In this document: in pieces, positions 1-24,314 of the stretch
Layout of the letters: each line of letters begins with the position of its first letter
How positions within the stretch are numbered: the first letter of the stretch is position 1
Origin: an uncultured cyanobacterium
GTDB lineage: Bacteria; Cyanobacteriota; Cyanobacteriia; PCC-9006; JAAUQQ01
Assembly (NCBI GenBank): GCA_963718615.1
Contig: OY970368.1
Span: forward strand, 3,904,001 to 3,968,000
DNA length: 64,000 bases
Direction of reading: 5' to 3'
The notes under the pieces: generated by a model
Seen by the model: the letters and a program-made list of their open reading frames with translations, nothing else
Told to the model about the DNA's origin: nothing
Database searches by the model: none
Translations under genes and position numbers: made by a program

Positions 1-1887
1 CGCCCGATTTTCAGTCATTTCAGGACGGCAATACCCTTGGTAAACCGCAACCTCCGCCAGGGCTGCCAACACATCCGCCGCCGCCACCGCTTGCGCCACG
101 CCACGAATCAGTTCGCTACGCAATCCTACCTCTTCCCGTAACCCCACAAAAATATCGTATTCAATTTGATTGAGCGTATCTTGGGCATTGAGAATGCGGT
201 TTTCCCGGTCCTTCAAATCCGGCGTAATATAACGCTCTTCATTCGTTAACGTTTGCTTACGAATGTAGTCCTCGGGAATCTGAACCTGGATACTTTTGGC
301 TCGGGTGATGCTGATGTAATAGCCAAAGGTTTTGTTATAGCCGACCTTGAGCGAAGAGACACCCGTTCGTTCTCGTTCCGTGGTTTCGAGATTGGCGATC
401 CATTGGCGATCGCCCTCCACCTGCGCCCGAAAGTCATCTAAATTAGTATTAATCCCCGGTCGAATCAGTCCTCCTTCCGTCAACAAAAGCGGTGGCGAAT
501 CCACCAGATGCTGATGCAATTTCTGACCGAGCTGCTCCAAAACAGATGGCACCTGCTGGAGATGCTTGAGATAGGGCGAGGTGCATTGACTCACCAACTG
601 GGCCAGCTCCGGTAAGCGGGCGAGGGAATCGGCCAAGGCTACTAAATCCCTCGCATTGGCCGTGCCCGAGCCCGCTCGTCCCGTGAGTCGCTCTAAATCG
701 TAAATCTCCCGCAGGAGGCTCCGCAGAGCCTGTCGCAAACTGCCCTTGCTCACCAATTCTTGAATGGTTTCCTGACGCGCCAGAATGCCCCGACGATCGA
801 GCAGGGGCTGAAGCAACCACCGCCGCAGCGCCCGTCCGCCCATGGTGGTCATGGTTTGGTCTAGTGCCCACAGGAGCGAACCAAAGAACGTCCCATCCCG
901 CACGGTTTGGGTAATTTCAAGATTGCGGCGGGTTTGATGATCAAGGATGAGAAACTCCGTCAGTTGATAGGTATGCAGCGGTTGTAGCTGCACCGTTATT
1001 TCTCGCTGGGTATCTTCTAGGTAGTCGAGCAAGCCCCCCGCCGCCCGCACGGCTAAGGGCAGATGGTCGCAGCCTAAACCTTCCAGGGAGCGGAGTTTGA
1101 AGCGATTGAGTAGACGCGATCGCGCCTCCGCCAACAAAAACCGCGACTGGGGCCGAAAGGTATAGCAAAACTGCGTGGGTAAACAATCGGGAAGATCCGC
1201 TCGCCCTGCAATTTGCTTTTCACCGGGGCGCAACAATCCCACCAGATCCGGCGCATCAATGGGAAACAACACTTCGGAAGGTTGTAGCCGCAAGAGTTCC
1301 TGGGAAAGCTGTTCTAAATCCGAGGCTTGGACCGTCAAAAACTCTCCCGTAGAAATATCGGCGTAGGCTAACCCCCAATGTTTTTTTTCAACCACAACCG
1401 CCGCTAAAAAATTATTGCGTCGGGCATTGAGCATGCCGTCTTCTAGCACCGTTCCCGGCGTGATCACCCGCGTAATCTCTCGCCGCACGAGGCCCTGAGC
1501 CTGGGAGGCCTCTTCCACCTGGTCACAAATTGCCACGGCATAGCCCTTTTCCACGAGCTGAGCGGCATAGCGATCGAGGGCATGGTAAGGAATCCCGGAC
1601 ATGGGCACCTTGCCCACCGCTTTGCCTGCGGCCTTGGCGGTCAGGACCAGCTCTAGCTCCCGCGAAATGGTAATTGCGTCTTCAAAGAAGCACTCATAAA
1701 AATCTCCCATGCGATACAGCAGCAACGCACTGGGGTTCTGTGCCTTGGTCTCGACATAGTGGCGCATACTGGGGGTGAGCAAATCCCAGTCCACGGCACG
1801 AGAGTTGTCGTATTTGACCTCGTGCTTTACCCGATAATCGGGCAGATCAGGCGGCTGGGGCAGATTGTCAGCGGGCACTTGGGTCAT
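1..1887 (-). CDS. mutS: DNA mismatch repair protein MutS (N-terminal part; the gene runs off the left edge)
   Basis: ATG at 1887 opens a frame reading MTQVPADN...[46 protein letters not shown]...[12 protein letters not shown]...[11 protein letters not shown], which is the MutS mismatch-recognition domain (GDFYE motif). It is absent from the ORF track because no stop lies in the window. Confidence 0.97.
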
Positions 1888-2890: not shown

Positions 2891-2990
2891 GTCTAACGCG
2901 AGAACCAGAAAATTGTCAGCGTTTTCTTCAGAGTTTAGAGCGCTGAGGCGTTGGTGAAGATTTTGTAATTTTCTACGCTGGGTCGAAGAG
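2891..2990 (+). other. Degenerate attC-like hairpin lacking a clear R' box
   Basis: GTCTAAC (RYYYAAC) at 2891-2897 is followed by inverted arms AGAAAATT/AATTTTCT and TCTTCA/TGAAGA. No GTTRRRY lies at the expected position. Confidence 0.35.
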
Positions 2991-2997
2991 AATAATA

Positions 2998-3236
2998 TTA
3001 TACTGAGACATGCCTGATAATACCTGAACAGGGGTGTTATCGGGCGTCGCTGCTGGGATAATACCTGGAAACGGGTTGTTATCATGCAGCTTTGCCTGAT
3101 AATACCCAACAGGGGGTGTTATTCAGCATGATTGCCTGGATAACTTGCTGTGACTAGGGATTATACGGCGTTGGCGCTTGAAAATACCGGAAGGAGGGAG
3201 TTATCAGGCATCGTGCATGAGAATAAGTTGTTAGCT
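2998..3236 (+). repeat. Array of five palindromic units at 41-bp period, ending in a GTT crossover (long attC/attI-like site)
   Basis: GATAA-type boxes start at 3016, 3057, 3098, 3139 and 3180 (GAAAA in the last), each followed 16-17 nt later by TTAT(C/T/A). An outer perfect inverted repeat ATGCCTGATAA (3010-3020) / TTATCAGGCAT (3201-3211) is present. The array ends AATAAGTT-GTTAGCT (GTTAGCT at 3230-3236). Confidence 0.85.
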
Positions 3237-3364
3237 TGATAGCCATTTGTAGGAATGCTTCTGCTAGCTTTCTTGCAAATGTTGAAGTAGTTTTAGATGA
3301 ATAGTTAGAGCAATTAGGCTAAAATCAGGCTGTTTAATCAATTTTTGTATTGGCGGTGTAATGT

Positions 3365-3733
3365 ATGTCAGAACAGAAGCCTTGGCTTTCTATGCTGTCC
3401 TTATTAGGATTTCAGGTGAATGCAGCTATCGAAAAAGGGCATGGAAATAAAATTTCATTCCATGACATTTACAAGGGCTTAGAAGAAAGAAATTTGTTTG
3501 AACTGTTAGACGAAAAGCTTCCTGGAGTTTTAGATCTCAGTCTTTTCCTTGAACGTAACGAGGGAGCTTCCCTTGAGCAGCGAGATGGACTTCTAAATGC
3601 TTTAAGCGATGCTGCGTCAGGTATGGAGGGAAGAGAAAGAAGAAAATATGGTATTGAGAGTTCAGGTTTGTCTTTACTGATGGCTTATATTTTAGAGGCG
3701 ATCCAGCAAGAATATTGGGTAAGTGCTAGATAG
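3365..3733 (+). CDS. Hypothetical protein (cassette 1)
   Basis: 122-aa ORF, AT-rich, the only substantial ORF between the two recombination sites. Confidence 0.75.
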   Translation: MSEQKPWLSMLSLLGFQVNAAIEKGHGNKISFHDIYKGLEERNLFELLDEKLPGVLDLSLFLERNEGASLEQRDGLLNALSDAASGMEGRERRKYGIESSGLSLLMAYILEAIQQEYWVSAR

Positions 3734-3818
3734 TTACTGCGTGTAATTTGACACACCTTGGAGATAATTGAAGGCAACGTAGGTATGCAATTGAAAGAGA
3801 AGATCGTTACAAAGCACA

Positions 3819-3906
3819 GGCTAACAAACCCAATGCACACCGACCGCCGAGAGATTATCGGTTAGAGTTCAAAGTTATTTGTGGCGGGTGATTGGGAACG
3901 TTATGC
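3819..3906 (+). other. attC integron recombination site
   Basis: R'' GGCTAAC (3819-3825). L'' CCCAAT(G)CAC pairs with L' GTGATTGGG, leaving one extrahelical base. Inner stem CCGCC/GGCGG. R' GTTATGC (3900-3906). Length is 88 bp. Confidence 0.88.
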
Positions 3907-3994
3907 CGCAAGTCCTTGGTGGGGGCAGTTCTTAAGGCTTATCTTCTAGTAGCCAGAGCTAAAATACTGAAAAGTTATTGATTTAGGGACAAGA

Positions 3995-5215
3995 ATGGTT
4001 GACGGAATAGATGAAAACCAGAGAAACTATTGGAACCAGTCCTCGGTAGAGAGGGGCTTATTAGATCTATCTGTTGTACTCTCAACCCGTGATATTACCG
4101 CTGGTAATCAATTTGCAATCTTTGTTTTAGTTAAAAATCCTTTTGATAAACCAGTTTGGATACGCCAAGTACATGTAAGTTTACCTAGTGAACTTAAATT
4201 GGCAAATTTTCTAGAAAAGCAGAGCAAGAACTCTAAACGTAAAAATGAAACAAGAAAAAATCTGGAAAGGTTGAGGGAAGAGAAAAGAGTTCGACTAGAA
4301 GCTAAGATCAATCTTCTAAATCAAGAAATCAAGAAAGTAGTTAAAGGTTTAGAGAGTAGTAAATCTCTAGAAGAATCAGATAAAAACTTTTTATACAAAA
4401 TAGAGTCACGGTTAGCAGAAGTAAAGCAGGAGTTGGAATCCCTGAATGAAGCAGATGAGGCAAGAATTTATATTGATGGCAAAGCGGCTGTAAGCAACTT
4501 TAAGGTTGTTTCTAGGCGACCCAGAATTTATATTGATAATGCTTCAGCCGTTTCTTATCTTGATGTCTACGATCCTGAATCTTTCCAAGAGGTGTCTGCC
4601 CAAGCAAGAACAGTAGCTTTAGAGAGTTCTCTTCCAAGGAATACAGCTTTACAACCCGGCAGCACTGCCGTTTATACAGCAGTTTTGTATGTTGAAAAAT
4701 CTCTTATTTTTACCCCGTCACATTATCGCTTGCAATTTAATGTTAATTATAGTTTTCATTCCAAAAAGAAGGGTTTGTTAGAGGAAACGACTTCTCGAGG
4801 TAGTTATGAGGAGGGAGAGGAAGGAATATTTACAAACACAGTGGCTCATGAAATATCAATCAGACCTTCAGTTTATTCGGTAATTATTGGAGCAGGTTTA
4901 GGAGGCTTTACAGGTTCCGTTGCTCGCTTGCTTCAAATTACGCCTATAGAGAAGTGGCAAGCATTTTCAAACGTAGATACTTTTACTTCTTTGATTGCTG
5001 TTACGGTTGCAGTAATACTCAGTGGCATTGCAGTTGTGTTTATGGCAAGGAAGTCAGAAGCGCAATCATTTGTATCAGTAGAGGATTTTTGGGGTGGGCT
5101 ATTGATTGGTTTTCTTGTTGGATATACTGGGACTTCCTTCTTTGAGCAGTTAACAGGCGTTACGAATCCGACAATAGTTAATCCAACACCAAGGGTTTCA
5201 CCTTTGCCACAGTAA
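3995..5215 (+). CDS. Hypothetical membrane protein with a coiled coil and about 3 C-terminal TM helices (cassette 2)
   Basis: 406 aa. Beta-rich N-terminus, charged heptad region at about aa 75-155, and hydrophobic segments VIIGAGLGGFTG, LIAVTVAVILSGIAVVF and FWGGLLIGFLVGY. Confidence 0.8.
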   Translation: MVDGIDENQRNYWNQSSVERGLLDLSVVLSTRDITAGNQFAIFVLVKNPFDKPVWIRQVHVSLPSELKLANFLEKQSKNSKRKNETRKNLERLREEKRVRLEAKINLLNQEIKKVVKGLESSKSLEESDKNFLYKIESRLAEVKQELESLNEADEARIYIDGKAAVSNFKVVSRRPRIYIDNASAVSYLDVYDPESFQEVSAQARTVALESSLPRNTALQPGSTAVYTAVLYVEKSLIFTPSHYRLQFNVNYSFHSKKKGLLEETTSRGSYEEGEEGIFTNTVAHEISIRPSVYSVIIGAGLGGFTGSVARLLQITPIEKWQAFSNVDTFTSLIAVTVAVILSGIAVVFMARKSEAQSFVSVEDFWGGLLIGFLVGYTGTSFFEQLTGVTNPTIVNPTPRVSPLPQ

Positions 5216-5270
5216 TATTTAATTATAATGCTATGAAGATGTTTACTACTTTGGATTCAAAGCGGCATAA

Positions 5271-5757: not shown

Positions 5758-6363
5758 TTACCAAATTCGATCCAGACCCAGAACAAATCCCGGCATCACC
5801 TCACCACAATCGATCGAACTGGGTGACTCCAACACCACCGCATCCTGTCCAGGGCGATAAATCTCAACCTGTTGACTCTGAGGATCGATTAACAGCCCCA
5901 ATCTCACCCCCAGCCGTCGATACTCCGCCATCTTCTCCTGCAACAATTTCAAATTATCCGTCGCCGACCGCAACTCAATCACAAAATCCGGCACAACCGG
6001 AATAAACCCAACAATGTCCACGCCCGCCAGTCGTGACTTCTCAATCCAAGACACATCCGGCGACATCTTCCCGCCCCCGCCCGCGATAAAATCATAGCCC
6101 GTCGATGAGTCAAATGTTTCGCCCAGATTAGTTTGGCGATTCCAAATCTCAACATCAGTTCCTAGACTCATATTTCTTTTGCCACTTTCACCACCCGTAG
6201 GAGGCATGACAATCAACTCTCCATCTTTTGTTAATTCCAGGCGCAACTCAGGATTATCCAAGCAAAGCTGGTCAAAGTATTCTGGGGTTACAGTGAGCTT
6301 GACATGGCTAACATTGAGTAACAGCGCATCAACCGATGATGTCGGAGCCGTAACCATGGTCAT
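5758..6363 (-). CDS. Uma2-family (DUF820) putative endonuclease
   Basis: LELTKDGELIVMPP, SPDVSWI, PDFVIELRS, KMAEY and GVRLGLLIDP motifs. Confidence 0.93.
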   Translation of the reverse strand: MTMVTAPTSSVDALLLNVSHVKLTVTPEYFDQLCLDNPELRLELTKDGELIVMPPTGGESGKRNMSLGTDVEIWNRQTNLGETFDSSTGYDFIAGGGGKMSPDVSWIEKSRLAGVDIVGFIPVVPDFVIELRSATDNLKLLQEKMAEYRRLGVRLGLLIDPQSQQVEIYRPGQDAVVLESPSSIDCGEVMPGFVLGLDRIW

Positions 6364-6710: not shown

Positions 6711-7322
6711 ATGGCAATTGCCTCTTCGCCTTCATCAGCGATCGCCAGACAAAAACTAACCCTAGCGGAGTTCCTAGATTATCAGGATGGGACTGACAAT
6801 CGCTATGAACTGGTAGAGGGGGAGTTACAACAGATGGCCATAGGGACAGGCTTGCATGGAGCCATCATAGAGTTTATCAATGATGAATTTCGCAATGAAA
6901 TCCGACGATTACAGCGACCCTGGACATCGAAGCAAGCTGCCGTTGCGATTCAGTCTCCTCGGGGCCGCCGTTGGGAGACCTGTCGTATCCCCGATGTAAC
7001 AGTCTTACCGATAGAACAATGGGAAACACTTTTGTCGAAGCAGGCAGTGATTACGCTAGATCAGCCTGTACCGACTTTGGTAGTGGAGGTGGTGAGCGAA
7101 TCTACGAAGGCTGAAGACTATCGGGCCAAGCATGCGGAATACGGCGTGTTGGAGATTCCGGAATATTGGATGATTGACCCGTTGGATGAAGTAGTGACGG
7201 TTTGTGTGTTTGAGGATGGAGGCTATACGAATCGACGGTTCGTGGGGGACGAACCCCTTCGGTCTGACATTTTTCCAGAGCTAATCCTCACTGCCGCTCA
7301 AATTCTTTCTGCACGGCGTTAA
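6711..7322 (+). CDS. Uma2-family putative endonuclease
   Basis: RYELVEGEL, RIPDVTV, LVVEVVSES and YGVLEIPEYWMIDP motifs. Confidence 0.93.
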   Translation: MAIASSPSSAIARQKLTLAEFLDYQDGTDNRYELVEGELQQMAIGTGLHGAIIEFINDEFRNEIRRLQRPWTSKQAAVAIQSPRGRRWETCRIPDVTVLPIEQWETLLSKQAVITLDQPVPTLVVEVVSESTKAEDYRAKHAEYGVLEIPEYWMIDPLDEVVTVCVFEDGGYTNRRFVGDEPLRSDIFPELILTAAQILSARR

Positions 7323-23526: not shown

Positions 23527-23926
23527 AGTTCTTTATATGGCTATCGTCAGAACTCACGAATCGAGAAACGCATTGCTCCGACGCCCCTGATGCAAGAAGG
23601 ATCTGAACTCCTAACTACTAAAACAGGGCAACCTGCTTTTAAAAGGGATCAGGACCCAGTCTTCGCGGAATCTACACGATTAATCCTGGCTATCTGAAAA
23701 AACGATAAACCGCTAATCGCATTGTTCCCGAGTTTTCTACGCATCCATCACCCCTCCATGGTAACCGTACACTGTGTTTCTCTTGTTACAAGTACGGTCT
23801 ATTGGTGGCCTATTCTAGAATGCGATCGCAGGGCTGGCGAAGGTCTTTGGCCCCTGAGGAGAGCGAACCCGCACCACCCCCTCATCTAGAGCCGGATGGG
23901 TAATGATTCAAACTAAATAATGGAAT

Positions 23927-24314
23927 GGAAAAGTCGGACATAAGCCGGGTTCTGTTCCCCGCTTTCCGAAGAAAACGGAGGGCAGTTATCTATCTGGGAC
24001 AGCGGTTACCCGACGCCTCAAGCGGTGCTCTCATGACGGAACAGGCAAAAGACCAACCCTTGTTCCAACGACCTTGCTCCCAACCGGGGTTTACCGAGCC
24101 AGCACCTCTCAATGCTGCTGGTGCGCTCTTACCGCACCTTTGCACCCTTACCTGTGAAGTCTAGACTTCCATCGGCGGTATGTTTCTGTGGCACTCTCCT
24201 CACGGTCACCCGCACTGGGCGTTACCCAGCAAGTTTGGTCTTTCGGGAGCCCGGACTTTCCTCAGACTGGGTCAGCGATGCCGCCCAGCCCGCAACTGCC
24301 TCGCCAACTTTTCC
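23927..24314 (-). ncRNA. rnpB: RNase P RNA
   Basis: The minus strand carries GAGGAAAGTCCGGGCTC, AGTGCCACAGAAA, GGTAAACCCCG and ACAGAACCCGGCTTAT. The P1 helix pairs GAAAAGTTGG with CCGACTTTTC. Confidence 0.97.

Follow-up and report, generated by a model that had tools for sequence, protein, structure and literature searches.

The window, by which we mean the whole stretch of 64,000 nucleotides that was analysed, belongs to a genome consisting of a single 6.10-Mb contig with a GC content of 52%. Immediately left of the region studied here, in a chromosomal context, lie the N-terminal part of mutS (MutS domains I–IV, positions 1–1887, minus strand) and a gene of 193 amino acids. They are followed by a conserved leader on the plus strand (2953–3010), by an array of short inverted boxes (2997–3236, no strand assigned) that ends in a simple recombination site (3214–3236, plus strand), and by two stretches, both on the plus strand, referred to here as cassette 1 (3231–3900), which carries an open reading frame of 122 aa (3365–3733) and an attC site, and cassette 2 (3901–5250), which may instead be a terminal low-GC insert and carries an open reading frame of 406 aa (3995–5215). 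Neither of the two predicted proteins gave a Pfam family above cut-off. The segment with the cassette open reading frames has a GC content of 34–44% (38–44% in cassette 1) as compared to 52% for the genome. Past this segment two genes of the Uma2 family (putative restriction endonuclease-like) are found at 5758–6363 (minus strand) and 6711–7322 (plus strand), and a bacterial RNase P class A RNA (250 bits) is located at 23926–24311 on the minus strand.

The array, as defined by the box positions, a repeat search and the conservation of the boxes among aligned copies, consists of about 13 alternately oriented boxes placed approximately 20.5 bp apart. The L-type boxes (GATAAY) are situated at 3016, 3057 and 3098 (all GATAAT), 3139 (GATAAC) and 3180 (GAAAAT) with a spacing of exactly 41 bp, and a sixth, GAATAA at 3221, keeps the 41-bp step and also serves as L box in the simple site. 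The inverted R-type boxes (RTTATC) are situated at 2997 (ATTATA), 3036 (GTTATC), 3078 (GTTATC), 3118 (GTTATT), 3160 (ATTATA) and 3200 (GTTATC), and the seventh, GTTAGC at 3230, is the R box of the simple site. Together they form five palindromic units of 41 bp between 3011 and 3215, each following TGCCnGATAAY-N15-RTTATCnGGCA plus a linker, with half-units on both sides of the five-unit stretch. When read in the other register the same array consists of six tight palindromes, RTTATCnGGCA-N3-4-TGCCnGATAAY, the last of which ends with the L box. Within one unit the boxes face each other like those of the simple site but with about 12 bp (one helical turn) more between them, a geometry for which we know of no catalytic meaning. 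A repeat search of the window also revealed a 20-nt repeat family at 3016, 3057, 3098 and 3180 and a perfect 11-nt outer inverted repeat (3010–3020 and 3201–3211), and the sequence GTTAGCTTG (3230–3238) is complementary to CAGGCTAAC (3817–3825) at eight of nine positions. The original prediction for this DNA had described boxes at the same five L-type positions with the same spacing, palindromic GATAA/TTAT(C) units with half-units at the ends, an 11-bp outer inverted repeat and the 8/9 complementarity between the array end and the end of the next gene, all of which were recovered, while its count of about ten boxes has to be raised.

In the window the pattern GATAA-N12-20-TTATC occurs three times against 0.30 expected, and three or more occurrences were reached in none of 100 shuffles; two of the three are found inside the array and the third, at 4535, is unrelated to it. 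Tandem Repeats Finder, run on the window with a minimum score of 30, did not report the array, and a test for identity periodicity on the paralogous copy at 3859 kb (the type A copy tested) was not significant. Since both of these gave no result, the signal of the array resides in the inverted boxes and their conservation rather than in direct-repeat identity.

A blastn search with positions 2930–3240 of the window as query showed that the block (~2953–3230) has at least ten further copies in the genome and is also present in two related genomes. Copies are situated at seven places, 417.5 kb (96% identity), 3859.3 kb (88%), 4713.9 kb (86%), 1015.3 kb (84%), 427.9 kb (81%), 4096.9 kb (73%) and 4646.4 kb (70%), and partial ones at 292.7, 295.4 and 745.6 kb. 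Among seven other genomes of the same order the block was found in two, with five matches in one (G001) and one match in the other (G003). When the copies were oriented and aligned they shared a common sequence from GGTGAAGATTTTGTAATTTTCTAC (2953) through to GAGAATAAGTTG/TTA (the slash marking the crossover), after which the DNA is unrelated, the sequences starting with TTAGCT, TTATGC, TTAGGG, TTAGGT or TTATAC, i.e. TTRRRY-like. This junction is reached by ten of the eleven aligned array copies, the one at 4646 kb decaying earlier; it is unchanged in eight of the ten and carries two to five changes in the other two, and all ten diverge after it. Among these copies, which are 70–96% identical, the invariant columns of the alignment are the box columns.

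Such a conserved left side followed by an unrelated right side at GTTG/TTA, as found in the ten copies reaching the junction, is characteristic of junctions formed by attI x attC recombination. The original prediction had suggested testing if copies always end in GTTR ahead of different genes, and every copy reaching the junction does end in this way before unrelated DNA; it had also placed the recombination of cassette 1 at the G/TT at 3230, which is where the copies diverge. The features that would have pointed elsewhere, constant downstream flanks, a lack of linkage to cassettes, or the end of a MITE or a plasmid iteron, were looked for and none of them applies. A MITE/REP-type repeat or a plasmid iteron was rejected as the identity of the block on the grounds that its right end is always a cassette junction, that a distant blastn search of a plasmid collection of 72,556 records gave no match to the array, and that the context is chromosomal.

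The leader, which runs from GGTGAAGATTTTGTAATTTTCTAC to TTATACTGAGACA, is common to all copies (alignment of 12 copies, in which those linked to an integrase gene, intI, align from 2953) and is in the complete copies located between the start codon of intI and the array. It contains a conserved -10-like sequence, TATACT at 2999–3004, that overlaps the first box and may have a promoter role. At the other end the five-unit array closes with AATAAGTTG/TTAGCT at 3230/3231. Here, at 3214–3236, the two inverted boxes of an attI simple site can be identified, the L box TGCATGAGAATAAG (3214–3227) and, after TT, the R box GTTAGCT (3230–3236), which is GTTRRRY-like and contains the crossover between G3230 and T3231, full copies being alike up to this point and unrelated beyond. 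When comparing the array with this simple site it was found that the left arms of the units, TGCCTGATAATACC, TGCCTGGATAAC and CGCTTGAAAATACC, are variants of the L box, the left arm of unit 5 matching it at 10 of 14 positions as read from the alignment of the copies. The right arms (GGTTGTTATC, GGTTGTTATCATGCA and similar) in turn match the R-box junctions (GTTGTTATGCC, GTTGTTATGCCGC) at 10 of 15 positions. This comparison shows that the repeated half-site has the likeness of the L and R boxes, which makes it, as judged from sequence, the putative box of the integrase itself.

To identify attC sites a covariance model (R1) was built from ten well-aligned attC sites of this genome, and a genome scan with it scored 150 out of 2405 first-look candidates; the family has at least 20 sites in the genome. 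In the window a textbook attC reaching from R'' (GGCTAAC) to R' (GTTATGC) was identified at 3816–3909 on the plus strand (100 bits, E 1e-25), so that the block is followed by a cassette bounded by attC, and a search without filters at E<=10 gave no other attC between 2500 and 12000. At the 3' end of cassette 2 no closing attC is detectable, the best score there being 8.7 bits. The proposal that the site heads a cassette array therefore stands as far as the presence of cassettes is concerned but comes down to two cassettes with one detectable attC. In seven of ten copies (417, 428, 745, 3859 with three sites, 4097, 4646 and the window copy) an attC is found on the cassette side, which bears out the expected linkage to cassettes, while behind the copies at 1015 and 4714 kb the R1 model gave none at E<=0.01. 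The other possibility raised originally, that the array is itself a non-canonical attC, was not supported, the R1 model giving no match in 2998–3236 at E<=10 with filters off; an attC, a single imperfect hairpin, was thus rejected with a model built from the genome's own sites.

The genome was also searched with the TIGR02249 (integron integrase) profile, which revealed one match above cut-off, at 948656–949594 (444 bits), read as an open reading frame of 323 aa, together with fragments at 3859.7–3860.4 kb, 4712.7–4713.8 kb, 4646.2 kb and 1907.1 kb. The copies at 3859, 4714 and 4646 kb adjoin divergent, degraded integrase fragments of this profile, and in the first two the degraded intI starts approximately 105 bp left of the block and unit 1 on the opposite strand. 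The suggested search for intI thus places integrase remnants next to three array copies. In the 64-kb window TIGR02249 gave no match and the copy there has no adjoining divergent intI, a feature that is present where related arrays lie beside an intact intI; the copies in the window and at 417 and 428 kb have a different left flank without integrase. The window copy is accordingly an orphan whose integrase gene was lost. The integrases adjoining the window-type array are all degraded in the three genomes searched, which is why the window-type platform may be dead, and pattern scans of metagenomes for type A signatures gave no matches, so no intact integrase was found beside a type A array.

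The copies in the window and at 417 and 428 kb share a left boundary near positions 2900–2933 of the window, and those at 1015 and 4097 kb keep one and the same short intI stub. As each orphan has a different first cassette behind a shared truncated boundary, this suggests that cassettes were exchanged once the integrase had been lost. A decayed second array on the left side of the copies in the window and at 417 and 428 kb was considered and rejected, local alignment scores of 14, 20 and 18 being within the range of shuffles.

Taken together, the constant and then divergent junction, the intI remnants beside three copies and the attC behind seven of ten copies identify the block as an attI platform with its crossover between G3230 and T3231, as the original prediction had suggested with the wording attI-like platform.

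Integron integrases recognise folded attC strands (PMC8946536), and the palindromic units of the array could accordingly be thought to work as folded single strands, either as attC-like DNA hairpins for the integrase or as RNA, with five hairpins in the leader at the 5' end of the cassette transcripts. Both strands do fold better than shuffled sequences (top -40.3 kcal/mol, z -4.8; bottom -30.3 kcal/mol, z -3.6), T-G wobbles favour the strand in the cassette direction in most units, and a few double changes preserve the inner stem of unit 1. However, the top strand is the more stable one whereas attC uses the bottom strand, and in G003 unit 1 shows the opposite wobble asymmetry. The minimum-free-energy fold is nested, long-range and ambiguous, with an ensemble frequency of ~0, and does not consist of five hairpins. 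RNAalifold on 11 copies gave a covariation term of only -0.51 kcal/mol, with double changes in 4 of 58 pairs. When native arms of ten palindromes, in both registers, were compared with chimeras whose left and right arms came from different copies, the means differed by at most 1.3 kcal/mol and in both directions; because chimeras fold equally well, the complementarity of the arms reflects a conserved half-site sequence and not a constraint on pairing. The array also lacks a match to the attC model, and in Rfam nothing reached the gathering score, the best hit in the region having 19.5 bits where 56.7 are needed, and E-value thresholds likewise yielded nothing relevant; with Rfam, covariation and arm tests all negative a structured RNA family was rejected. 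Finally, a strict spacing of 40–41 bp belongs to phasing on the double helix and not to hairpins, and its persistence between differing sequences would be expected of boxes phased along the helix of duplex DNA. The alternative single-stranded hairpins that had been envisaged for this DNA are therefore not borne out, a function through folded strands is in our opinion quite improbable, and since arm co-evolution and covariation are both missing the best reading of the boxes is as phased accessory sites on double-stranded DNA.

The intact integrase of this genome has an array of its own at 948435–948660, with four palindromes of approximately 40 bp (GATAKRYAGAAA-n-TTTCTRYMTATC, closing with CTATTAAGAG/TTAAAT), that is unlike the window array in sequence and of the same design. 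To extend the comparison 80 related, mostly cyanobacterial loci with integrases 62–72% identical to the 323-aa protein were collected, and a shuffle-calibrated periodicity test was applied to the 67 of them with at least 270 bp upstream of intI. Significant periodicity was found in 38 of the 67 upstream regions, the remaining 29 not being significant, and the periods that scored best were 40 bp (19 cases), 41 bp (14), 42 bp (three), and 73 and 79 bp (one each), so that 36 of 38 fall at 40–42 bp. Sorted by record title, 36 out of 51 cyanobacterial loci were significant as against 2 out of 16 others. In the controls significance was found in 4/61 regions downstream of intI, 2/67 inside intI and 2/47 on the cassette side (600–1130 bp away), none of them at 40–42 bp. 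The test is conservative, as two arrays of this genome that were added as controls were not significant. Independently, Tandem Repeats Finder reported periods of 40–42 bp in 15 loci.

The palindrome centres, which are GGCA-nnn-TGCC in the window type, are GAAA-n-TTTC in most of the others, and the spacing between centres of the latter kind is 39–42 bp in 48 of 93 cases, 81–86 bp in 14 and 32–34 bp in seven. In five of the loci (L027, L031, L035, L040 and L053) and in the array at 948.5 kb of the genome the centres are spaced 40-32-40 bp instead of 40-40-40 bp, i.e. with one interval about 8 bp shorter. Parsing succeeded for 34 arrays. The number of tight palindromes is four in 20 of these (range 2–6), and in 24 of the 34 a GTTR is situated at +15 to +19 after the last centre, compared to 1 of 75 internal palindromes; the pattern there, TTTCnnTCTAATAnnnAG/TTAGNC, has the L-N-R geometry of a simple site. 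With the R1 model attC sites were detected in 18 of 48 loci, and all of them lie upstream of intI with the strand as expected. In G003 the array beside a near-intact integrase keeps this geometry with a further, different centre sequence. This comparison of upstream regions demonstrates, at the level of sequence, a 40–41-bp phasing that is conserved throughout the clade, and a centre that varies while the geometry holds fits co-evolution with the cognate integrase.

Palindromes in this position could also be operators for a host protein or another transcription factor that controls the two divergent promoters, those of the integrase and of the cassettes, in which case the resemblance to the L and R boxes would be partly a coincidence. 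The array directly adjoins the one stretch in which Pint and Pc can be accommodated, approximately 60–100 bp from the start of intI, its first box overlaps the conserved TATACT, and tight palindromes about four helical turns apart are typical of cooperative repressors. In addition, the type A and type B half-sites of this genome share a loose motif, which would allow for a shared host protein. On the other hand, in 24 of 34 arrays the simple site has the last right half-site as its L box, where the integrase must bind, and the left half-sites resemble the R' ends of cassettes (GTTAGNC...). A constant geometry with centres varying between integron lineages is unexpected for a single host factor, and the platform has no conserved extra gene. 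We therefore regard operators as an unlikely explanation, though one carrying a little more weight than the folded strands discussed above.

The least probable reading, in our judgement very improbable, is that the array has no function, being either a relic left by repeated tandem duplications in which the simple site was copied, or AT-rich hexamers that look like promoters and occur together by chance. The decay of all linked integrases of the window type is in line with a relic, and a promoter-like TTGTTA-16-GATAAT with mirror-image matches does fall inside the array. The promoter scan, however, gave three promoter-like sites against 1.2 +/- 1.0 expected, which is no excess and makes the scan uninformative. 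A relic should not keep the 40–41-bp geometry beside intact integrases (62–72% identity) in dozens of genomes with differing sequences, nor should its box columns be invariant among the copies of the block.

Our preferred interpretation, which we consider probable, is that the region is the attI platform of a family of chromosomal integrons in filamentous cyanobacteria and that its phased boxes dock many integrase protomers. According to this model cassettes would be inserted at G3230/T3231 of a canonical simple site made up of one L and one R box, and the putative recognition arm of ~12–14 nt would be repeated 11 more times upstream, in alternating orientation and ~20.5 bp apart. A repeat of 41 bp, about four helical turns, would put all boxes on one face of the duplex, where many protomers of the integron integrase could dock cooperatively, an arrangement that would amount to an expanded form of DR1 and DR2, the accessory sites in attI1. 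The docked integrase would thereby be held at the insertion site and the DNA shaped or wrapped in a way that favours attI x attC insertion, and occupancy of the array would probably occlude the divergent promoters at its left edge. As the first box overlaps a -10-like TATACT beside the start of the integrase gene, occupancy may, speculatively, regulate Pc and Pint. A bolder version of the docking model, which we find rather unlikely, holds that a dozen integrase protomers assemble on the array into a wrapped complex resembling a filament (an "attI intasome" with core-type sites only), that this complex licenses capture and switches the divergent promoters, and that the orphan platforms are live landing pads served in trans by the single intact integrase, giving a network of about ten insertion sites with different cassettes.

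In attI1 two extra direct repeats bound by IntI1 favour attI x attC recombination (PMC8946536; PMC3146285), and these repeats, DR1 and DR2, have been proposed to act as topological filters (PMC8946536) or as enhancers keeping the integrase near the simple site (PMC3146285). The window array resembles attI1 in its position between intI and the first cassette, in a crossover within GTTRRRY and in having extra core-type boxes upstream, but differs in that attI1 has two accessory repeats within ~65 bp while here 11 are spread over ~230 bp with a strict 41-bp phasing. The comparison with attI1 carries the caveat that the accessory repeats there are direct whereas the boxes here are alternately inverted, and the two sites show no sequence similarity. 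Membership among the attI1-type DR1/DR2 sites was for these reasons rejected, the eleven boxes being DR-like in function at best. The attIA of Vibrio cholerae is, like the window site, the insertion site of a chromosomal integron with a simple site, but attIA and most environmental attI are reported to be without repeated accessory boxes (PMC8946536), most of 30 marine attI families are described as lacking direct repeats (PMC3146285), and for most integrons the attI site is given as unknown (PMC4889954). In the window locus attC-bounded cassettes without a neighbouring integrase are a feature shared with CALIN and decayed chromosomal integrons (classes of IntegronFinder, PMC4889954), but differently from CALIN a complete attI platform persists, with one attC.

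A functional analogy can be drawn to the arm sites of lambda attP and to the cer and psi sites of the Xer system, where multiple phased protein-binding sites by the core build a higher-order complex that provides directionality or a topological filter. There a separate arm-binding domain or accessory proteins are used whereas here the core-type box itself is repeated, and to our knowledge no arm-binding domain is known in IntI. Detailed knowledge of attI is limited to the sites of a few clinical and Vibrio integrons. A full-text search of the literature, covering the accessible parts of the main articles, found no description of phased palindrome arrays in attI, and a multi-site phased attI architecture thus appears to be undescribed in print, with about 13 putative phased boxes in the attI of the window compared to two to four in textbook integrons. 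If 9–13 helically phased boxes are indeed a feature of dozens of cyanobacterial integrons, the capture platform would be far larger than the textbook nucleoprotein, attI sites, orphan ones included, could be annotated in these genomes by the sequence signature of the array, and the array would provide a simple system in which to study how a tyrosine recombinase that brings together double-stranded and folded single-stranded DNA is directed by accessory sites.

Members of the same attC family are also situated far from arrays and integrases, at 2245118, 3133725, 5014238, 5022911, 5046649 and other positions of the genome, and may be singletons or small attC clusters. Among the related loci, a first cassette starting with GTTAGCCGCGCGACTCGAAGTCGTTCGGGGGAG follows the attI array alike in L052, L067 and L116 (at ~2613), which represent three genomes.
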